A stretch of 64,000 nucleotides of DNA from an uncultured Oscillospiraceae bacterium (GTDB taxonomy: Bacteria > Bacillota > Clostridia > UBA1212 > UBA1255), in contig CABROF010000002.1 of the NCBI GenBank assembly GCA_902472555.1, forward strand, positions 28,404 through 92,403, written 5' to 3'. The notes under the pieces were generated by a model. That model was not told where the DNA came from and ran no database searches. It saw only the letters and a program-made list of their open reading frames with translations. Made by a program: the position numbers and the translations under genes. Every line of letters begins with the position of its first letter. Positions within the stretch are counted from its first letter, which is position 1. Shown one piece after another: positions 3,844 to 56,742 of this stretch.

Positions 3844-5811
3844 TCACATAATATCAAGCTCGTCCAAATATAAATGTCCTTTTTCCGCAATCTGTCTTTT
3901 TCGCTCATCCAATGCGTCGCCCAGCAGCATTTCAAAATAATAGGCAGTCCGCTCCGCCTCCTCGGGCATCACCTTGATCAGCCGTCTTGTTTCGGGGTTC
4001 ATCGTTGTTTCCCACATCATCTGCGGCTCATTCTCACCTAAACCTTTTGAACGCTGAATCGTATATTTACCGGTCAGCCCGGAAAGAACCTGGGCCTTTT
4101 CTTTTTCATCATAAGCAAAATACGTTTTATTCTTACAGGTAATTTCAAAAAGCGGGGTTTCGGCAATATAGACCTTCCCTTCCCGGATCAGCGTGGGAAT
4201 CAGCCTGTAAATCATGGCTAATATCAGCGTCCGGATCTGAAAGCCGTCCACATCCGCATCCGTACAGATAATAATCTTATTCCAGCGAAGCCCGTTGAGA
4301 TCAAACATGGTCAGGTCCTTTGTATGTTTGGATTTTACCTCCACGCCGCAGCCTAAAACCTTCAGCAGGTTTACGATGATTTCGCTCTCAAAGATTTTGT
4401 TGTAATCCGATTTCAGGCAATTTAATATCTTTCCGCGCACAGGCATAATGGCCTGAAAATCGCTGTCTCTTCCCAATTTAACCGATCCTAAAGCAGAATC
4501 ACCCTCCACAATATAGAGCTCTCTCCGATTCACATCCCGTGTACGGCAGTCTACAAACTTTTTGACCCGGTTGGAAATGTCGATGTTTCCGGAAAGCTTT
4601 TTTTTAATATTGATCCGCTGTTTTTCCGCAGATTCACGGCTGCGCTTATTTACAAGCACCTGCTCCATGATCCGGTCGGCTTCCAGCTTATTTTCTATAA
4701 AATAGACCTCCAGCTTTTCCTTAATAAACTCTGTCATGGCCTCTTGAATAAATTTATTATTAATAGCCTTTTTGGTCTGATTCTCATAGCTGGTCATGGT
4801 GGAAAAGGAGTTTGTCACCAGAATCAGGCTGTCCTGAACATCCACAAAGGTAATCTTTGCTTCCTCTTTATTATACTTTCCCTGGGCCTTGATATATTTG
4901 TCGATTTCACTCACAAATGCGCTCCGCACGGCCTTATCCGGAGAACCGCCGTTTTCAAGATAGCTGGAATTATGATAATATTCAATCAAATTCGTCTGAT
5001 TATTAAAGCAGAACGCAATTTGCATCTTGACCTTATACTCGGGCTTATCCGCCCGATCCCTTCCCTTTGTCGCAGTTTCATAATACTGGACGCCGGTAAT
5101 GCCCTTTTCTTCGTCGATCTCGCGGACATAATCGGTAATACCATTTTCATACAAAAACGTAAAGCGCTGATCGGAAGCCTCGTCATATAACTGAAACCGC
5201 AGTCCCGCATTGACGACAGCCTGCTTTTTCAAGACTGTTGTAAAAAACTCCAACGGGATATTGATATCCGTAAAAACCTCCAGGTCCGGTTTCCAGCGCT
5301 GCTGTGTGCCGGACTGCTTATATTGGCAGGGTTCCTTCTTCAATCCCCCGATATTATAGCCTTTTTCAAAATGAAGATCATACCGGTAGCCGTCCTTGAA
5401 CACGGTTACGTCCATATATTCCGAGCTGTACTGCGTAGCACAGCTGCCCAAACCGTTCAAGCCGAGGCTGTATTCATAATTTTCACCCGTGTTATTCTGA
5501 TATTTGCCGCCGGCATACAGCTCACAGTATACGAGCTCCCAGTTGAAGCGCTGTTCCTTTTCATTAAAATCTACGGGACAGCCCCGCCCGTAATCACGAA
5601 TCATGATAGACTGATCTTTATAGCGTGTAACCTCGATGACCTTACCGTAGCCTTCCCTGGCTTCGTCGATTGAATTGGCCAGTATCTCGATAAAGGTATG
5701 CTCACAGCCTTCTAATCCGTCCGAACCGAGAATGGCAGCAGGACGGAGCCTGACGCGGTCAGGCCCCTTCAATGCGGAAATACTCTCGTTATTATATCCT
5801 TTTGTTGCCAT
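3844..5811 (-). CDS. parE: Type IIA DNA topoisomerase subunit B (ParE/GyrB family)
   Basis: GHKL ATPase, TOPRIM and EGDSAGG motifs. Start set at MATKGYNN (ATG 5811) with a GGAAAG RBS. Confidence 0.8.
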   Translation of the reverse strand: MATKGYNNESISALKGPDRVRLRPAAILGSDGLEGCEHTFIEILANSIDEAREGYGKVIEVTRYKDQSIMIRDYGRGCPVDFNEKEQRFNWELVYCELYAGGKYQNNTGENYEYSLGLNGLGSCATQYSSEYMDVTVFKDGYRYDLHFEKGYNIGGLKKEPCQYKQSGTQQRWKPDLEVFTDINIPLEFFTTVLKKQAVVNAGLRFQLYDEASDQRFTFLYENGITDYVREIDEEKGITGVQYYETATKGRDRADKPEYKVKMQIAFCFNNQTNLIEYYHNSSYLENGGSPDKAVRSAFVSEIDKYIKAQGKYNKEEAKITFVDVQDSLILVTNSFSTMTSYENQTKKAINNKFIQEAMTEFIKEKLEVYFIENKLEADRIMEQVLVNKRSRESAEKQRINIKKKLSGNIDISNRVKKFVDCRTRDVNRRELYIVEGDSALGSVKLGRDSDFQAIMPVRGKILNCLKSDYNKIFESEIIVNLLKVLGCGVEVKSKHTKDLTMFDLNGLRWNKIIICTDADVDGFQIRTLILAMIYRLIPTLIREGKVYIAETPLFEITCKNKTYFAYDEKEKAQVLSGLTGKYTIQRSKGLGENEPQMMWETTMNPETRRLIKVMPEEAERTAYYFEMLLGDALDERKRQIAEKGHLYLDELDIM

Positions 5812-5876
5812 ATAATCTTTCCTTTTCTTACGTAAAATCACAGCCGCGCAAGGCCCTGCGCGGCTGCACAAGCCGT

Positions 5877-7844
5877 TTAATTCAGCATGTTTTGTCCGCC
5901 TGTAACAGGCACTGCCTGGCCCGTCTCATAGGCCTGCTCTACAATGTAGAAAATCGCTCTTGCTACATCGATAATTTCACAGCCTCTGTTCATAGGCACC
6001 TTAGATTCATAGAATTTGCGTACATCCTCGATGCAGGTGGCGCCGGGCACCTTGCCTGCCTTAAAATATTGAACAAACAGGCCTTTCTCCGGATCAGACC
6101 ATAATGGACCGCTCAGAAGATTTCCCGGACAGATGGCGTTCACCTTGATATTATAAGGCACCAGCTCCAGCGCAAAGCTCTGGGTCAGGCCGATTCCGCC
6201 GAATTTACTGCCGGCATACGCAAAATTCTTATTGCTGCCGGACAGTCCGGATTTGGAATTAATCTGGATAATATCCATCATATAATCCGGCGCAAAGCGA
6301 TTCTGAATTTTCATAATGCGGGAAGCATATTTCGCACACAGATAATATGCGGTATAGTTGATCTTTGTAACCAGATCGAACTTCTGAACCGTCATTTCCT
6401 CAAGCCCGCCGGCAATGGCAATTCCCGCATTATTTACAAAAATATCAAGTCCGCCGTAAACAAGCACCGTATTGTAAACCATTTCCTTTACAAATTCTTC
6501 GCTGCCCACGTCGGCTTTGCAGGCAAACGTCCGGTTCTTTCCGTAGATCGCGTTCATATTGTCGCTGTTCTGCTTCGCCAGATCATAATTCAGATCCGCG
6601 ATCACGACATTCGCCCCCTGCTTCAGCATTTCATCTGCAATTCCCTGTCCGAAGCCCTGTGCACTGCCTGTCACGATTGCAACCTTTTCATGAAGTCTTT
6701 TCGCGCTGCCGCCGCCTAAGCTGACTTTGGAACGATAGGATTCAACCTCCCAATTGCAGATAAAATCAATCATCTCATCCGTCATAAACAGCGGTCCGCC
6801 GAAGGCCTCGGAATACACGCCGATCTTGCAGGCATCCAAAAACACCTCAGCACAAATATCCGCATTCTTTTTATTGGTCCCCCAGGCAAAAATCCCCAAT
6901 CCCTGCACGGCAACGATTTTCGGTGCAAAGCCATGGGCAACGCGGTAATCCTGGATTCCTTGTTCCAGCAGCGTATACTGCTGCTCCAGGTCCTCCGCAT
7001 GCTCCACGTAGAGCGGCCACGGCTTGCAGTAAACGATATGATCCGGGGAATATGCGGAAGATACAGGGTAAAAATGCTCTTTGCTTTCCACATATCGCAT
7101 AATTTCCCGGTTTGTCTCAAAGGTAACCACCGATGTCCCGCCGTCGCGCAGCAGCATTCTGATGGCCGGAGCTAAAAATACGGCACGTTCTTTGTCGAAT
7201 GCCGCATCAGAAAAATCAGGCTGCCGTCTTACACGGCTGTTGACTGCATCAAAAATATACGCTGTCTTTTCATCGATTTCGGCCTCGCTGTTCCCCCCGA
7301 TAAAAATACCGTGATTCTGCAGTAAAATGATATCCGCGTTTCTTCCTGTAGCATTCTTATATGCATCCATTTCTTTTTTCAGCGTCGCTGCCAGCACATA
7401 CCCGGGCTCCACCAATCCGATCCAAATCACGCGGTCGCCGAATAACTTTTCGGCAGCCGCCCGGCCACAGGTAAAGCCATTGAGCAATGCGGGATGGGTG
7501 TGTACAATATATGTATATGGAATCAAATGATGCAGCAGCGTCTCAACACTGGGCCGTTTGGACAGTTCTGTCTTCTCCCGGGCATCCATCATATCCTCCA
7601 GCACCTGCGCTTCCCGCTGGGCAGGATCTGCCGAATACGCTTTTTCAAACATCGCGTTCAGCTTCCCGCGATTCATCTTCACGAATCCATCCTCTGTGAT
7701 GTTGGCCAGGGTAGTTCCGGATCCTTTAATATAAAGAAAATCCGAATCCTTATAAGAGGTATTCCCGCCGCCGGCCAGCACAAAGTCCGGGTTTGCGCCG
7801 TAACGGTTGGAAATTGTTACAATCTGAGATAAAGACATGACCAA
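5877..7844 (-). CDS. Bifunctional rhamnulose-1-phosphate aldolase / short-chain dehydrogenase (YuxG/RhaEW-like)
   Basis: N-terminal class II aldolase/adducin domain plus a C-terminal SDR (VTGSAQGFGQGIA Rossmann, YAGSK catalytic motif). 655 aa. Confidence 0.75.
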   Translation of the reverse strand: MVMSLSQIVTISNRYGANPDFVLAGGGNTSYKDSDFLYIKGSGTTLANITEDGFVKMNRGKLNAMFEKAYSADPAQREAQVLEDMMDAREKTELSKRPSVETLLHHLIPYTYIVHTHPALLNGFTCGRAAAEKLFGDRVIWIGLVEPGYVLAATLKKEMDAYKNATGRNADIILLQNHGIFIGGNSEAEIDEKTAYIFDAVNSRVRRQPDFSDAAFDKERAVFLAPAIRMLLRDGGTSVVTFETNREIMRYVESKEHFYPVSSAYSPDHIVYCKPWPLYVEHAEDLEQQYTLLEQGIQDYRVAHGFAPKIVAVQGLGIFAWGTNKKNADICAEVFLDACKIGVYSEAFGGPLFMTDEMIDFICNWEVESYRSKVSLGGGSAKRLHEKVAIVTGSAQGFGQGIADEMLKQGANVVIADLNYDLAKQNSDNMNAIYGKNRTFACKADVGSEEFVKEMVYNTVLVYGGLDIFVNNAGIAIAGGLEEMTVQKFDLVTKINYTAYYLCAKYASRIMKIQNRFAPDYMMDIIQINSKSGLSGSNKNFAYAGSKFGGIGLTQSFALELVPYNIKVNAICPGNLLSGPLWSDPEKGLFVQYFKAGKVPGATCIEDVRKFYESKVPMNRGCEIIDVARAIFYIVEQAYETGQAVPVTGGQNMLN

Positions 7845-7904
7845 TTAGCCTCCCTAATAAAGTAATTACAACCGTATCATTCTATCCCCAACGCAGTCTG
7901 CTTG

Positions 7905-9065
7905 TCAAGTCCTGCGCCGGGCGATTTCCATTAATCCAAGGGTCGTTATACCTGCAATAAAAGGATGTCCGGGGTCCTCTTTAGCCAATCCCCGCATATC
8001 CTCGATCAGCAGCGCACGATCGGCGCTTTTCGGCATATCGATAAAATCACAGACAATTATGCCGCCCAAATTGCGCAGCCGCAGCTGCCGCATAATCTCC
8101 CTGGCGGCTTCCCGGTTAACCGTAATCGCGGTTTCCTCCGGACTTCTGGCAGAAGTGTACCTGCCGGAATTCACGTCAATGACCGTCATGGCCTCCGTAT
8201 GCTCGATTACAATATGTGCGCCTGACTTCAGCCAAACCTTCCGCATAAATAATTTTTCGATTTTACTGTCCAATGACTTTACCGCAAACAAATCCGCAGC
8301 GCCTTTTGCCGGCAGACAGGAAATCAGAGAGGCCGCCGCAGGCATATGCTGTCTGAGCTTTGCCGCATATATGCTGTCGTCTGTTATGATTCCCGTATAG
8401 GTAGATAAGGGATAGGCCTTAATCATTTTACAGGCAAAATCGTCGGAATAAAGCAGGCACGGAGCGGCGCTGCGCTGAACCTCGGCAAAATGATTCCGGA
8501 TTTCCCGCCATATCACATATTGCGCCATGGCATCATTTATAATTTCTGCTGCAGGGGCATCTGCGCTGTCTGTACGCAGTACGATGCCGTAGCAGGCGGA
8601 AGATGTGCCCTCCTTTTCTGCGATACATCGTAAAATGTCGTCTCCGATCAGCTGAAGCCGTTCCCGCTGCGGCGGCAGCCCGATTTTTTTTGAGATTCCG
8701 ATGCCGCTCTGCCCGGGCAGCAAAACGCAGTATGTCCCGGCTAATTCCGGGTTAAGCTTCAGACGGACGCCCTTTTCGTCCCGCTCATCACTGACGGCTT
8801 GGACAATCACCATACTTCCGGGACGCAGGTCTGCATCGCTGATAAAACCGTTTTTACGCAAACCAATGTCTGCAAACGCAGCGCGGTACGCCTTGCAGTT
8901 TTCTGTAATCCGGGCAGCGTAAATATTTCCCGCCAGCCCCTTCTGTTTTTGAAAAATACGGTATTCCGCCAGTTCTCCGTTTTCTGTCATGGCCATGGCC
9001 GTATTTCCTTTACAGCGAATAATCCATTCTCTGTTTTTTTGATGTCCTGCCTCTGCTGTTATCAT
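7905..9065 (-). CDS. rng: Ribonuclease E/G family protein (short form)
   Basis: S1-like N-terminus, HTEAMTVIDVNSG and NLGGIIVCDFIDM catalytic-domain signatures. Confidence 0.7.
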   Translation of the reverse strand: MITAEAGHQKNREWIIRCKGNTAMAMTENGELAEYRIFQKQKGLAGNIYAARITENCKAYRAAFADIGLRKNGFISDADLRPGSMVIVQAVSDERDEKGVRLKLNPELAGTYCVLLPGQSGIGISKKIGLPPQRERLQLIGDDILRCIAEKEGTSSACYGIVLRTDSADAPAAEIINDAMAQYVIWREIRNHFAEVQRSAAPCLLYSDDFACKMIKAYPLSTYTGIITDDSIYAAKLRQHMPAAASLISCLPAKGAADLFAVKSLDSKIEKLFMRKVWLKSGAHIVIEHTEAMTVIDVNSGRYTSARSPEETAITVNREAAREIMRQLRLRNLGGIIVCDFIDMPKSADRALLIEDMRGLAKEDPGHPFIAGITTLGLMEIARRRT

Positions 9066-44293: not shown

Positions 44294-44581
44294 CTATTCC
44301 GAAATGCGCTCCGCTGCCGTCTTGTTGTAAATAATCTTTTTGACACTTTCTTCCGACAAGCAATATTTTGCGGATATTTCACGCATATCACAACCGTCTG
44401 AAAAATCGCTGCGTATTGCTCTATTGCGGTCCGCCAGCTCCTGCCGCGTTCCGGTAAGCGCACCCCAAGGCACCCGGGGCTGACTGCCAGTAGGAATATA
44501 CAAAAGCGTGCCGCCCGCATATTTTTGAACCTCTGCCAAAAGATTAGGTGGAAGAAAGTCCTTTGCGTTTTTATAGGACAA
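44294..44581 (-). CDS. Small HTH regulator, CD3324/Mor-like family
   Basis: 95 aa; MSYKNAKDFLPPNLLAEVQKYAGG...LYIP...R..AIRSDF..G.....ISAKYCLSEESVKKII resembles CD3324-family proteins. Confidence 0.5.
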   Translation of the reverse strand: MSYKNAKDFLPPNLLAEVQKYAGGTLLYIPTGSQPRVPWGALTGTRQELADRNRAIRSDFSDGCDMREISAKYCLSEESVKKIIYNKTAAERISE

Positions 44582-52070: not shown

Positions 52071-53030
52071 TCACTCGCTTGCACATGTACAAGCTTTCTT
52101 TTGTTCCTGCTCCCGGCAGCGCAAATGAGACAGCAGCCGGCAGTGCAGCTCCTTGTCCACATGCACACAGGCTCTGCGGGTTGCCCAGCAGCCCACCGAA
52201 ACGCCAACGGCCAGCGTCGCAGGATGATGTGCTTCCCACTCCACATGCACATCCAGTACCGTGCGCCTTCCTGTCAACCCCTGGGGGCCGATGCGAAGGG
52301 CATCCAGCAGCCGGATCAATTCCATTTCAAAGGCAGCAGCGTCGCTGTTTTCATTCCGGCTTCCTACGGGACGCAGCAGCGCACGCTTAGACAGTACGGC
52401 AGCGCGATCCGCACAGGTACCGATCCCGACCCCAACCAGCAAAGGCGGACATGCATTAATGCCGCGGTCCAAAACCGTGTCTATCACATACTGTCTGATT
52501 CCTTCAAATCCCGCCGCGGGCATTAAAACCATAGATCGTCCCGGCATCAGCACCATGGCCTTTCCCGGAAGGGAGCAGCCGCCGCCTGCCATATAGAGTT
52601 CAATTGTCAGATCATCTGAATCGGAAATGCTTGTCCACTCTATGCATGGCGCGCCGGTTCCGATATTGGTACCGGTATTCTTTCCGGTAAAGGTTTCCAC
52701 CACATTGGGGCGGAGCGGCACTTCGATCGTGGCACGCCGCACCGCTTCATTCAGAATTCCGGGCAATTCCGCCAGCAGCGGGAACCGGGCGCCTGCCCGG
52801 ATATGAAACTGAAGAATTCCCGTATCCTGACAGACCGGTCTGCCCGATGAGGAAGCGCGCTCCATATTTTCCAACATACAATCGTAAATCGCCCCGGCAG
52901 GCTGGCTGTCTTCTTCCTTACGCATACGAATCAGACAATCGTAAATATCATCCGGCAGATGCTTGGACATCAATCCGATAATCTGCGTCATTTTATCTGT
53001 TAATAAACAAATACGGTCCTCTTGATCCAA
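52071..53030 (-). CDS. Class I (Fe-S) fumarate hydratase / tartrate dehydratase alpha subunit (apparent TTG start)
   Basis: N-terminal catalytic domain motifs (CQDTGI, Cys ligands). The first codon is TTG, preceded by a GGGAGG RBS. Confidence 0.7.
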   Translation of the reverse strand: MDQEDRICLLTDKMTQIIGLMSKHLPDDIYDCLIRMRKEEDSQPAGAIYDCMLENMERASSSGRPVCQDTGILQFHIRAGARFPLLAELPGILNEAVRRATIEVPLRPNVVETFTGKNTGTNIGTGAPCIEWTSISDSDDLTIELYMAGGGCSLPGKAMVLMPGRSMVLMPAAGFEGIRQYVIDTVLDRGINACPPLLVGVGIGTCADRAAVLSKRALLRPVGSRNENSDAAAFEMELIRLLDALRIGPQGLTGRRTVLDVHVEWEAHHPATLAVGVSVGCWATRRACVHVDKELHCRLLSHLRCREQEQKKACTCASE

Positions 53031-53096
53031 ACAGCAGCGCCTCCCGAAGCAATCTCAATGTAAAGAACTTCAAATTAGAATTTTACTATAGAATTT

Positions 53097-53128
53097 TTTA
53101 TTTGTAAAGCATGGCGCCATTGCACGGC
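53097..53128 (+). repeat. 32-bp perfect direct repeat, left copy (tttatttgtaaagcatggcgccattgcacggc)
   Basis: Identical 32-mer recurs at 56194..56225; contains the 10-bp palindrome ATGGCGCCAT. Confidence 0.9.
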
Positions 53129-53262
53129 CAAGGCTTACGCATGAATGTGTTTCGCAGCCAAAATTCATACATCAAATAAAAAAACTACAAATTCATAATT
53201 CGCGTTCATAATTCGCGCCAAATGTTTTTCGGGATTTGTACCGATTGCATACCGCTTCTTTT

Positions 53263-53502
53263 TCAGGCCATGGCGAACACTCTTTGGATCGTATCATGGG
53301 AGGGAATCCCATTGGGAAGTTCCAGATAATTCCTTAGAAACTTCTCGTGTTCTCTTCCGAACACCTCCATTTCCACCCAGTCATCTGCATCTGCGCGCGT
53401 TGCGAAAAAGACAAGCATAATAATATCTATCATCTTATGCAGTACCTTCTTCTCCTGCCAGATATCCGTCACTGTACTTACATACTCCAAAAGAGTTTTC
53501 AT
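53263..53502 (-). pseudogene. Truncated ISAs1-family transposase (N-terminal DDE_Tnp_1-associated fragment only, 79 aa)
   Basis: MKTLLEYVSTVTD...IIMLVFFATRADADDW..ME.FG matches the ISAs1/H-repeat transposase N-terminus. The ORF terminates early and no catalytic DDE domain follows. Confidence 0.6.
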
Positions 53503-53663
53503 AACAATCCATCCTTTTTCCTTTGATTATACCAAAAAGATGAAATGTTCATAATTTATTATTTCATGCGTTCGTCGTGGTCATGCAATCGGCATCATAT
53601 TCACATTTTGTGCATTATGAGGGACTCCTGCATGAAGAGCAACAGTCCCTCGAATCCATACCT

Positions 53664-54533
53664 TTACGCTTTTTTCTTACGCAAATATATTCCGCCAAAC
53701 ACAAGACCGACTGCCAGCAGAACAATGCAGAGCGAAATGCCGCCCCATAGCAAATACTTGTTTGTATTGTCCGACGCTGTAACAGCATTGTCGTTGCCAA
53801 TCGGAATTTTTGCATTTCGGTTAAAAGTATTTGCGTTAATATCGTATGGTGATAAATCCCAAACACCACCGATATTGATTCCTCCCGGGGGGGTATCAGC
53901 GTCCATTTTACCGTATACGGCTTTCATCAATTCGAAAAAATCCGCCGCAGGAAACAAATACTCTTTTCCGCCAGTCAAGTAATACTTATAATAAACATAA
54001 TCACCTTTATTCGTTTCATAGTACAGTGCCGTACCTTGGTGGTTGGATTCACCCCAAAGATAATAAACATTTTTGACCGTAATATCTGACGATATTTTAT
54101 CGAGACCTTTTTGATTTAAAAATGCAGATAGCGTCTCTGCGTCACAGATGTATTGTTCGTCATTCATCTTTACAGATTTCATATCATCTGTAATTGATTG
54201 AACTGATAAAACATTTTTGTTCGATACAATCGCATATAATGTCTGAAGGACATGCTTACTTTTCATGATCTCATCGATGCTGCCATATTCACTAAAAGCA
54301 TACACTATAGGTATGTTATATATTTTTACAACATTATTAGAGCCCTCAGTATCAAGAATATTTAATATTTCCTTGCTTACATACTTCGAACTGTATTCAT
54401 TCATTCCAGCAGAATTTTCCGTAATTTTGCTGATCAACTCTTCTTTTTTCATAGTTTCCTCCGCATGAATCGTTAGTGGCATGACTGCAATTATAGTCAA
54501 GAGCAAGCATAATATTACCATAATTCTTTTCAT
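53664..54533 (-). CDS. Secreted, C-terminally membrane-anchored protein of unknown function (paralog A)
   Basis: Signal peptide MKRIMVILCLLLTIIAVMPLTIHA; C-terminal TM plus KKKA tail. AT-rich, with AAAGGAG RBS. Confidence 0.6.
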   Translation of the reverse strand: MKRIMVILCLLLTIIAVMPLTIHAEETMKKEELISKITENSAGMNEYSSKYVSKEILNILDTEGSNNVVKIYNIPIVYAFSEYGSIDEIMKSKHVLQTLYAIVSNKNVLSVQSITDDMKSVKMNDEQYICDAETLSAFLNQKGLDKISSDITVKNVYYLWGESNHQGTALYYETNKGDYVYYKYYLTGGKEYLFPAADFFELMKAVYGKMDADTPPGGINIGGVWDLSPYDINANTFNRNAKIPIGNDNAVTASDNTNKYLLWGGISLCIVLLAVGLVFGGIYLRKKKA

Positions 54534-54705
54534 TATATAGACACTCCTTTACCAAAATAAATTTTTATATTTATCCTGTGTTTAATTAAAATTCAATTTC
54601 AAACAGGAGTAAGGGTATTACCGGAATAGCTTGTATTCACCACTACAAAACTTCCCATATACCGGTATCTGGTTGTTCACCATTCAAAGCATTCAGTCCA
54701 TACCT

Positions 54706-55524
54706 TTACGCTTTTTTCTTACGCAAATATATTCCGCCAAACACAAGACCGACTGCCAGCAGAACAATGCAGAGCGAAATGCCGCCCCATAGCAAATACT
54801 TGTTTGTATTGCCCGACGCTGTAACACTGTTATTGTCGTTGCCAGTCGGAATCTTTACATTCAAGTTAAAGGTGCTTGCGTTAATATCGTATTTTGATAA
54901 ATCCCAAACCCCGTTGATAGCTACCCCACCATATGAATCAGCATATTTTTTTCTTTCATCAGAGATTGCTTTTTGATACATGCAGAACTCTTCTATCGGA
55001 AACAGGTATTCCCCTTCACCGAGTTCATAGTAATTATAATAAACGTAGTCACCTTTGTTTGTTTCATAATAAATCGCCGTACCCATATGATTTGTTTCGC
55101 CTGAAAGGTAGTAAGTATTATAAATTACTATATCTGATGAGACCTTTTCTATTATTTTGTCATTTTGAAAAGCATTCAATGCCTTTTGATTGCTGCTATA
55201 TACTTCAAATTCGTGACATTCACCATCATAAATTGCCTTATATTCGAATAAGCCGTTTGAAGATTTCACAGCATAATAAATCTGTAATGCTTCATTGCCT
55301 GCCAATACCTCACTGATGTTGCTATATTCGGTAAAAGCAAAGCGTAATGGAATATTATAAATTCTTATAACCTCCTCATCTTCTTGCAAGGCAAGCTGTT
55401 TTTTTATTTCCTCACTGATCGTTGTTGAATCTTCTTTTTTCATATTGTCCTCCGCATAAATTGTAAGTGTCATACACGAGATAACAAGTAAGGTTACTGC
55501 TAATAATATAATTACTTTTTTCAT
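54706..55524 (-). CDS. Secreted, C-terminally membrane-anchored protein of unknown function (paralog B)
   Basis: MKKVIILLAVTLLVISCMTLTIYA signal; shares the core YYETNKGDYVYY and an identical C-terminal anchor with paralog A. TATAAT plus AAAGGAG upstream. Confidence 0.6.
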   Translation of the reverse strand: MKKVIILLAVTLLVISCMTLTIYAEDNMKKEDSTTISEEIKKQLALQEDEEVIRIYNIPLRFAFTEYSNISEVLAGNEALQIYYAVKSSNGLFEYKAIYDGECHEFEVYSSNQKALNAFQNDKIIEKVSSDIVIYNTYYLSGETNHMGTAIYYETNKGDYVYYNYYELGEGEYLFPIEEFCMYQKAISDERKKYADSYGGVAINGVWDLSKYDINASTFNLNVKIPTGNDNNSVTASGNTNKYLLWGGISLCIVLLAVGLVFGGIYLRKKKA

Positions 55525-55788
55525 AATAAACACTCCTTTATTAAATTATATCACGAAAATTCCCGCGGTATATATTATATTGTATGTCTAATTCCCGATT
55601 TGCGGAGTATTCTCCATTTTTCCATGCTTTAACAAGATTTGTAATGTTAAACGTATTATCTGAAACGGTAATAGATGTATAGATCGGTTGAGATTTTCCA
55701 TTGTTTACATTTTAGAAATCAGAATCCATAGCCTTGTTGTGAACAGTGTAAAATTCGCCGCAACAGGCAAGTGAAATAAACCATTGTA

Positions 55789-55830
55789 AAAAGCGCAAAA
55801 ACCGACTTACACAGCGGCTTTTGCGCTTTT
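55789..55830. terminator. Bidirectional terminator-like hairpin (aaaagcgcaaaa...ttttgcgctttttt)
   Basis: 9-bp stem flanked by an A-run and a T-run, in the AT-rich gene-less part of the islet. Confidence 0.45.
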
Positions 55831-56193
55831 TTAAAGGATTAATAAATGATACCTTTCACATGGTATGAAAAGCAAATTACTCAATTGCGGATCGCCGCTG
55901 TAATATGATATACTGTCAATTATAACCATATTTTTGGGCCCCTTGTAACACTGATTGGAATAAAACTCCATTTTTATTATATAAATATCATAAATAAATC
56001 GAACTGTCAACAGTTCATACAAAAACAAATAAATACTTACTCTACAAGACCCGTCTTTTGTATTTAGCACCATATTCTTTAAGAAAATAAAGAAGTCCAT
56101 AATCCTTTGAACACCCTGAAAACGGGCGTTTTTTATTTTAAAGAAAACACTTGTAAAAAATGATTTTTCGCAGTATGGATACAAAAGTCAGGG

Positions 56194-56225
56194 TTTATTT
56201 GTAAAGCATGGCGCCATTGCACGGC
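56194..56225 (+). repeat. 32-bp perfect direct repeat, right copy
   Basis: Identical to 53097..53128. Confidence 0.9.
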
Positions 56226-56427
56226 AGAACAGCAGTGGCAAAAGGGAAACGATAAAATTTTCCCAAAGCTTCTCTGCTGTTTTCAGACCGCACGGAGCCG
56301 CCATCCGCCGTTTCCATATAAAAACAGCATATAAAATCACATAAATACAGAGCCAAACGTAACATCCGTACATAGACAAATAAAAGACCCGGATGGTATA
56401 ATGGCCCAAAAAGAGGTGGAGCCTGAC

Positions 56428-56742
56428 ATGCAGAAGAATACATTTCAGATGATCTATGAAATTGTCCGGGAAATTCCCCGGGGAAAGGTTGCTACCTATG
56501 GCCAGATCGCAGGCATGACGGGTAATCCACGCCTATCGAGAGCCGTGGGATATGCGCTGCATGTAAATCCCGAACCCGGTATCATTCCCTGCCATCGTGT
56601 CGTCAAAAAAGGCGGGGTCCTCTCCGAAGCATTTGCTTTCGGCGGAATCAATCGGCAGAGGGCGCTTTTAGAGGCAGAGGGCGTCGTATTCACGCCGGAA
56701 GGAACCGTCGATATGACGCAATGCATGTGGTACGGATGGTAA
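56428..56742 (+). CDS. MGMT-family protein (methylated-DNA-protein-cysteine methyltransferase DNA-binding domain only, Atl/Ogt C-domain-like)
   Basis: IPRGKVATYGQIA...PCHRVV active-site motif. 104 aa, so no N-terminal domain. GAGGTGGAG RBS. Confidence 0.75.
   Translation: MQKNTFQMIYEIVREIPRGKVATYGQIAGMTGNPRLSRAVGYALHVNPEPGIIPCHRVVKKGGVLSEAFAFGGINRQRALLEAEGVVFTPEGTVDMTQCMWYGW

Follow-up and report, generated by a model that had tools for sequence, protein, structure and literature searches.

The closest described counterparts of the locus analysed here are the cis-mobilizable elements (CIMEs), which are flanked by attachment (att) sites, have lost their integration and transfer genes, and were defined for streptococcal elements (PMC5704250). 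Particular features are also shared with insertion sequences (ISs) of the ISAs1 family (H-repeat type) and with islets of orphan immunity or partner genes by polymorphic toxin loci. The locus itself is an AT-rich islet at positions 53097 to 56225 of a 64-kb stretch of DNA from an uncultured Oscillospiraceae bacterium (contig CABROF010000002.1, assembly GCA_902472555.1), which was analysed at its full length of 64,000 nucleotides and is referred to as the window. An earlier note on this DNA had described the islet as a horizontally acquired cassette bounded by a direct repeat and possibly inserted at an att-like site. Comparison of contigs now reveals that the islet is present in one and absent from the other of two closely related lineages within one species. 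With regard to its origin, the reading tentatively favoured here is that the islet represents the decayed remnant of a site-specifically integrated, CIME-like element that was trimmed by an IS.

A presence/absence polymorphism bounded by a 32-bp repeat

The islet is delimited by two exact copies of the same 32-mer (TTTATTTGTAAAGCATGGCGCCATTGCACGGC), both on the plus strand and without a single mismatch between them. The left copy (53097..53128) constitutes an attL-like junction, which is the same in every occupied contig, and the right copy (56194..56225), directly followed by AGAAC, constitutes an attR-like junction. Both the repeat at these positions and a sharp drop in GC content between its copies had been pointed out in the earlier note, and both hold: GC is 0.28–0.44 between the copies compared with 0.50–0.59 in the flanks, and among the 1-kb bins of the whole window just three fall below 0.41, all of them at 53–56 kb, so that no other part of the 64 kb is strongly AT-rich (in rounded terms, 30–42% GC against about 50%). 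Identity between the copies is limited to exactly 32 bp: the left copy is preceded by T and followed by C, the right copy preceded by G and followed by A. The pair represents the sole perfect long non-coding direct repeat of the window, where no third copy occurs at up to 3 mismatches; none was seen in 100 shuffles either. Within the 32-mer lies a 10-bp palindrome, ATGGCGCCAT, which is not enriched elsewhere in the window. The islet amounts to 3,065 bp plus one additional copy of the 32-bp target sequence. Exact matches to a 24-nt core taken from the repeat are absent from a genome collection of 185,579 species representatives, a weak negative since the species itself is not included there, and from viral contigs (IMG/VR); the single match of this core in JGI metagenome records is the right junction of this same locus. 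Likewise, no sequence resembling the 32-mer (at up to 8 mismatches) was found in loci carrying homologues of the cargo genes.

Contigs of the same species were retrieved from human-gut metagenomes by exact-protein look-up of the MGMT gene that lies to the right of the islet. In three of them (L011, L014, and L020), originating from three samples and two assemblers, the spacing between the fumarase and MGMT genes is 278 bp and a single copy of the 32-mer is present. These contigs constitute the single-copy empty site that the earlier note had proposed to look for in related strains, and the islet is accordingly not a constant feature of the region. It is present in L002/L013, L003, L004/L019, and L012 as well as in several shorter contigs, with the same junctions as in the window and with islet DNA that is 99.7–100% identical to that of the window; among the data sets behind the occupied contigs are ERZ27247033, ERZ28564864, and SRR13083111. 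Taken over all contigs, flank identities are 99.2–99.9%, as expected within one species. Over 4 kb to the right of the islet, the occupied contigs match the window at 99.75% identity or more, except for L004/L019 at 99.6%, where the mismatches correspond to an N-run; their left flank yields ~99.2–99.4% by blastn, a value lowered by a 24-bp insertion found only in the window. The flanks of the empty contigs are 99.2–99.3% identical to the window and carry common single-nucleotide polymorphisms of their own, evenly distributed along the flank, which amount to 28 shared differences in the 4 kb of right flank as compared with 3–11 among occupied strains. At the junction, the empty allele reads 32-mer + ACGGC + AGAAC (CACGGCACGGCAGAAC), and the right copy of the occupied allele reads 32-mer + AGAAC (CACGGCAGAAC).

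An explanation of the empty sites as assembly collapse is ruled out by their occurrence in three samples and two assemblers and by linked allele-specific variants (the extra ACGGC, 56262C>T, and others), and is also countered by the fact that the 32-bp repeat is shorter than the MEGAHIT k-mer (k=141). Frameshifts within the islet of L012/L057 (GCA_964261755.1), which leave a 57-aa transposase piece and split one of the two cargo genes (paralog B) into 157 + 116 aa, were considered as signs of decay and dismissed; core genes in the same assembly are also split or fused, so the frameshifts are probably indel errors. The source species is a rare, uncultured human-gut lineage. Among the 185,579 GTDB species representatives, which include neither the species nor its near relatives, the closest fumarase is 51% identical, and exact-cluster look-ups of its core proteins give clusters of only about 10 members. 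The contigs document a clean gain/loss polymorphism for an uncultured gut species from which both alleles are available.

The ISAs1-family element and the gene-less stretch

The segment next to the left repeat copy is a non-autonomous ISAs1-family element of ~450 bp on the minus strand (53129..53579), which retains both termini and was compared by blastn with three independent relatives, from Enterocloster (L041), a gut contig (L044), and Anaerocolumna cellulosilytica AP023367 (L051). It harbors a 79-aa open reading frame (ORF; 53263..53502, minus strand) for the N-terminal DDE_Tnp_1_assoc domain (PF13808) of an ISAs1-type transposase (Pfam E 1.6e-21), which also matches the NCBIfam model transpos_ISAs1 with an E-value of 3e-14, under the model cut-off. 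Window positions 53581..53268 align with the 5′ end and first ~325 bp of the relatives; the alignment then skips ~805 bp (relative position ~325 to ~1130) and resumes in their last ~120 bp at window 53268..53137. The deletion junction lies near 53266–53268, and the entire DDE domain (PF01609, DDE_Tnp_1), which is there in the relatives, has been lost, with the 79-aa ORF ending just past the deletion. The earlier note had reported an N-terminal fragment of an ISAs1 transposase. While only the N-terminal domain is indeed encoded, the feature is not a mere fragment but a mini-IS that keeps its two ends and has been deleted internally. The 165 relatives of the 79-aa ORF in the database are likewise all short, none being a full-length transposase; their loci show full-length decayed or nearly intact ISAs1-family elements.

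Apart from the ~805-bp deletion, the 453-bp element resembles its relatives in DNA identity (78–82% at the 5′ end, with 82–92% over short terminal matches, and 73–84% at the 3′ end), in the encoded DDE_Tnp_1_assoc domain, and in its terminal inverted repeat, which shares the core ACGCATGAA. The left inverted repeat (53563–53579) is well preserved, matching the CACGACAAACGCATGAA termini of L044 and L051 at 16/17 positions. The right one (53129–53145, CAAGGCTTACGCATGAA) matches the left at 13/17 and CACGACAAACGCATGAA at 11/17; it is conserved over ACGCATGAA, whereas its outermost 8 nt are degenerate (4/8). The best-preserved relatives, L051 2921–4167 and L044 2922–4153, from which the true termini were derived, possess perfect 17-nt inverted repeats (CACGACAAACGCATGAA) and are flanked by 10-bp direct target duplications (TGTTGCTACT in L044 and GGGTAAAGGG in L051); the L051 copy resides within a prophage-like region (D5_N primase, small terminase). 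The window element, in contrast, lacks a 10-bp target duplication: its flanking 10-mers, ATTGCACGGC and GTCATGCAAT, are no direct duplication and match each other at 8/10 positions as inverted repeats. The statement of the earlier note that the 32-mer exceeds the target-site duplication of an IS is borne out by the 10 bp made by intact relatives, and the element cannot explain the 32-bp repeat. A 27-nt inverted repeat (53119–53145 / 53563–53589) was rejected as extended IS ends, as the relatives place the IS end 10 nt further in and the outer 10 nt are flank. To within a few bases, the IS is expected to end immediately next to where the left 32-mer stops. Since no target duplication surrounds the IS, its position does not reflect a simple insertion, and some rearrangement ended at the IS terminus, presumably the loss of DNA between two copies or next to one. 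The case illustrates how remnants of an IS may determine how long an att-like repeat appears to be.

At its opposite end, the islet consists of a gene-less AT-rich stretch of 668 bp with ~31% GC (55526..56193), which comprises the promoter region of paralog B, a bidirectional terminator hairpin, and the right end of the islet. The hairpin (~55788–55832; −23.2 kcal/mol, z −4.4) agrees with the prior description of a gene-less stretch with its own terminator, and the stretch is 99.4–100% conserved in all occupied contigs. No ORF with a family match and no hit in a six-frame Pfam scan were obtained between 55526 and 56193, which gave no sign of a hidden integrase remnant in this segment, and no Rfam RNA family was detected in the islet. 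A 117-aa ORF with a weak PADLOC hit (E 9e-4) was judged spurious in view of its AT bias. The islet contains no integrase, excisionase, relaxase, or replication gene, its sole ORF with a family match being the IS-derived DDE_Tnp_1_assoc, and recombinase genes are likewise missing among the called genes within ~10 kb on either side. The motif AAACNNTTGTAAA occurs at 55778–55790 and 56145–56157 in the gene-less stretch, and TTGTAAA recurs within the 32-mer. Matches of this type are weakly above chance (5 with at most one mismatch in the window against 1.25 expected), and the pair could represent arm-type sites or AT-rich noise. In one contig (L015:1-126; ERZ27252982 k141_103060; window ~55526), the gene-less 668 bp is shared at 99.4%, and from the very start codon of paralog B onwards the contig has unique, GC-richer sequence up to its end; it represents either an islet variant carrying other cargo or a contig with a chimeric end.

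Other kinds of mobile element were considered as sources and discarded. A phage or plasmid origin was rejected for lack of DNA matches in phage (blastn) or plasmid collections and of protein matches on plasmids; viral contigs contain no relatives and gave no exact-pattern or family hits, and nothing in them assigns the islet to a prophage or phage satellite. A Xer/dif-type site, as used by integrative mobile elements exploiting Xer (IMEX), was dropped because the region around the left repeat resembles Bacillus dif only at AT-rich positions (~5/11 and 7/11 in the arms, read by eye), the duplicated block falls short of a full site, and the GC skew indicates no terminus here.

Origin of the islet

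A sequence that is single-copy at the empty site and duplicated as a direct repeat around foreign DNA is the signature of attP x attB integration with a common core. That the DNA is foreign follows from its composition, from the IS remnant, and from a cargo family found in mobile-element-rich loci elsewhere; together with the empty site, these features render the horizontal acquisition proposed in the earlier note well supported. According to the tentatively favoured reading, a larger integrative element, resembling an integrative and conjugative (ICE-like) or integrative and mobilizable (IME-like) element if judged from the company that the cargo family keeps elsewhere, would have recombined at a chromosomal attB including the 32-mer, thereby generating attL and attR. 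An ISAs1-family element would subsequently have landed in the integrated element, and IS-associated deletion and decay would have removed the recombination and transfer modules, leaving behind attL, the IS stump, two cargo genes, a non-coding arm, and attR. The circular, attP-type junction expected from this model would be ...GTCAGGG + 32-mer + CAAGGCTTACG..., likewise written as ...GTATGGATACAAAAGTCAGGG + 32-mer + CAAGGCTTACGCATG...; a precise empty junction without the extra ACGGC would read GAATTTT + 32-mer + AGAACAGCAG. In its present form, with an IS lacking the catalytic domain at the left end, two tandem paralogs, and a 668-bp non-coding stretch, the islet is probably immobile.

Several observations weigh against this reading. 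Owing to the extra ACGGC, no single clean recombination converts one allele into the other, so that a further slippage of 5 bp in the tandem ACGGC must be postulated, whichever the polarity. It may be the IS, and not the core of a recombinase site, that determines where the 32-bp identity stops on the left. The scanned collections yielded neither an intact element nor an integrase nor a second insertion with this core, and the right end of the islet shows no convincingly significant arm-type repeats in its vicinity. As neither the species nor any near relative is represented in the genome collection, the comparison has no outgroup and negative searches are weak. Of the att-like site and site-specific insertion suggested in the earlier note, the repeat has stood the comparison, being single-copy at the empty site, and the mechanism stays putative, no integrase being present in the islet or within ~10 kb. 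Recombination between att sites is proposed with corresponding caution, because the searches returned neither a cognate integrase nor a sister element, the left arm of any att site has been replaced by the IS, and the extra ACGGC needs a separate event.

The same pair of alleles could also have arisen by a non-site-specific insertion that duplicated 32 bp of its target, the 32-mer having no role in recognition. Foreign linear DNA might have been captured at a staggered double-strand break with overhang fill-in, or a transposition-type enzyme acting in trans might have made long staggered cuts; a true 32-bp target duplication by a novel insertion enzyme is a possible reading. The lack of an integrase and of any second use of the site is consistent with such an event, as are the absence of recombinase-type features at both islet ends and the nature of the duplication as a single clean block, no other fragments of the native intergenic region, which would have indicated a longer original duplication, being found inside the islet. 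This origin is nevertheless considered unlikely, as the local IS family duplicates 10 bp, the islet ends form no inverted repeats with each other, and no prokaryotic transposition system is known to duplicate this much target. Direct delivery of the cargo by the ISAs1-family element, as a composite or one-ended unit extending from the outer end at 53129 to a surrogate end at 56193, would account for the expected IS terminus lying exactly at the left junction, and some IS families do mobilise neighbouring genes via surrogate ends. It is disfavoured as very improbable: the duplication made by intact relatives is 10 bp and not 32 bp, the right border (GGATACAAAAGTCAGGG) is unlike the IS inverted repeat (2/17 at the junction, read by eye), the IS flanks are not a direct duplication, and the transposase lacks its catalytic domain. 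Neither IS-type ends at both borders nor the family-typical duplication, as expected of a composite or IS-mobilised transposon, are present.

The polarity of the event may, moreover, be the reverse, with the islet being ancestral and the three empty contigs resulting from deletion via the 32-bp repeats, a scenario that is compatible with an older integration. In support of this possibility, the empty contigs form one distinct lineage, as judged from their shared differences in the right flank, so that one loss is no less parsimonious than one gain; rare deletion is also possible between perfect 32-bp repeats. Recombination between the repeats predicts, however, a junction of 32-mer + AGAAC rather than the observed 32-mer + ACGGC + AGAAC. 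Composition, IS remnant, and cargo family also indicate a foreign origin at some time, and no outgroup exists among the collections (closest fumarase, 51%). An ancestral islet hence appears quite improbable. The suggestion that the 32-mer is a regulatory or dispersed repeat which happens to occur on both sides of an AT-rich region, unrelated to its borders, finds some backing in the palindrome and the −35-like hexamer that it contains. It is effectively refuted by the restriction of the 32-mer to two copies in 64 kb, by the absence of further copies in any collection, and by the presence of exactly one copy, at the junction point, in the empty site; the common dispersed repeat that the earlier note had named as the finding that would speak against islet borders was thus not encountered. 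The decayed, site-specifically integrated element remains the tentatively preferred explanation.

Cargo genes, flanking genes, and comparison with known systems

Two tandem paralogous genes make up the cargo. Paralog A (289 aa; 53664..54533, minus strand) encodes a protein whose signal peptide is followed by an ectodomain of the alpha/beta type (~190 aa), then by a linker, and finally, at the C-terminus, by a transmembrane anchor that carries a basic tail. Paralog B (54706..55524, minus strand) belongs to the same family and is assigned 272 aa, also by the gene caller on other contigs. The two proteins are 52% identical (E 2e-96), and both start with a signal-like segment and close with a hydrophobic anchor whose last residues are KKKA, in agreement with the tandem signal-peptide/C-terminal-anchor proteins noted previously; the consensus −10 and AAAGGAG signals mentioned along with them are seen as TATAAT boxes (in promoters of the form TGnTATAAT) and AAAGGAG ribosome-binding sites ahead of each paralog. 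A block of 130 nt that covers the anchor-coding 3′ end and stop of paralog A (53655..53784, minus strand) is 99% identical to 54697–54826 in paralog B. Compared with the protein identity of ~52% elsewhere, this sequence pattern suggests that the paralogs recently underwent gene conversion, and only at the end that encodes the anchor. A version of the islet in L062 (ERZ27237185 k119_220758, 1771–2990) carries one 272-aa paralog between the gene-less stretch and the IS remnant, which could reflect recombination across the 130-nt block or assembly collapse at k=119. An ortholog of paralog B resides on an unrelated contig (L022; 72% aa and 80% DNA identity).

Neither Pfam nor PADLOC assigns the paralogs to a family, and NCBIfam gives only sub-threshold matches (E at least 0.01), far under the curated cut-offs. 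Relatives numbered 25 in a word-index search, and a profile search returned 502 clusters at 50% identity. From the family alignment, AlphaFold gave a model of reasonable confidence (pLDDT 79.6), which has no real structural neighbour in the PDB (Foldseek E at least 0.07). In longer family members (P0178, P0179, P0226, P0255, P0301, and others), a type I dockerin or BspA-type leucine-rich repeats replace the transmembrane anchor, and the domain is therefore taken as an extracellular, surface-displayed module; these alternative anchors point to cell-surface or cellulosome-type display. In three independent contexts, a family gene lies directly downstream of a gene for a 630–1156-aa protein with CBM96, RicinB-lectin, and papain-like protease (Peptidase_C39_2/C70) domains: L024 8072–10816, at a locus with an RHS/YD-shell protein; L052 5106–8798 (gene pair 5106–7964 / 8001–8798), at a locus with a serine recombinase and a tyrosine integrase; and L054 5221–8644, at a locus with a type IV secretion system coupling protein, Toprim (relaxosome-type) genes, and IS66. 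The last two loci belong to other taxa. This conserved pair of a surface-protein family and a secreted lectin/cysteine protease in mobile-element-rich loci is the part most worth pursuing.

The large lectin/protease partner is absent beside both window paralogs and beside the L022 ortholog. This has triggered the speculation, to which little credence is given, that the paralogs are partner-less "orphan" copies of a family that natively might serve as inhibitor or immunity partner of a RicinB-lectin/CBM96 and papain-like (C39/C70-type) protease on conjugative or integrative elements of gut Clostridia, the islet then being an acquired defence islet. If so, it would be kept as protection against the proteases of neighbours.

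The islet occupies the divergent promoter region between the fumarase operon and MGMT-truA, in line with its placement between fumarate hydratase and the MGMT/truA genes in the earlier note, and Pfam matches corroborate the flanking genes. On the left, the fumarate hydratase alpha and beta genes form an operon on the minus strand. The alpha subunit gene (52071..53030, minus strand) is a core gene (Pfam Fumerase E 1.2e-75) that is syntenic in all contigs, and the insertion point is located ~100 bp upstream of its start. On the right lies the gene for an MGMT/Ogt-type DNA-binding-domain protein (56401..56742, plus strand; Pfam DNA_binding_1 E 1.8e-29; NCBIfam ogt E 5.5e-20) with a PCHR motif, followed by truA on the plus strand. 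A promoter-like site, TTTACA-N17-TAAAAT, on the minus strand at 53108..53080 points at the fumarase gene; its −35 box is found within the left 32-mer, with the palindrome just upstream. Since the core is duplicated, the −35 box of the fumarase promoter and the upstream palindrome are retained on the left, and the native MGMT upstream region is retained on the right. The fumarase alpha gene of the window additionally carries, at 52547–52575, the above-mentioned 24-bp insertion, which is in-frame, is accompanied by two substitutions, and adds 8 residues (...MVLMPGRSMVLMP...); it is absent from all other contigs of the species, empty or occupied. Farther to the left, a 95-aa ORF (44294–44581, minus strand) with a weak match to Mor (phage Mu-type transcription activator) in precomputed tables is conserved in all contigs of the species.

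Comparison with known systems reveals both likenesses and differences. Like the orphan immunity or partner-gene islets by polymorphic toxin loci (orphan rhs, immunity modules), the locus contains tandem diverged paralogs without a large partner gene and is strain-variable with IS debris, and one homologue of its genes adjoins an RHS/YD-shell protein (L024). In contrast to such islets, there is no evidence that the window family neutralises anything, its proteins are extracellular and membrane- or dockerin-anchored, and the partner of the family is a lectin and papain-like protease instead of a demonstrated toxin. With regard to CIMEs, the islet differs in the lack of a known cognate integrase or intact parent element for this core, in its location within an intergenic promoter region instead of at the 3′ end of a gene or tRNA, and in that one border is an IS terminus, so that the left arm of any att site is gone. 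It shares with them a small size and flanking attL/attR-like direct repeats whose sequence occurs once in empty strains, with the extra ACGGC beside it. Integrase, excisionase, and transfer genes of its own are missing as in CIMEs, decay and IS debris are evident inside, and its cargo is of a kind found on integrative or conjugative elements elsewhere. The architecture of the islet is an ordinary outcome of mobile-element decay.

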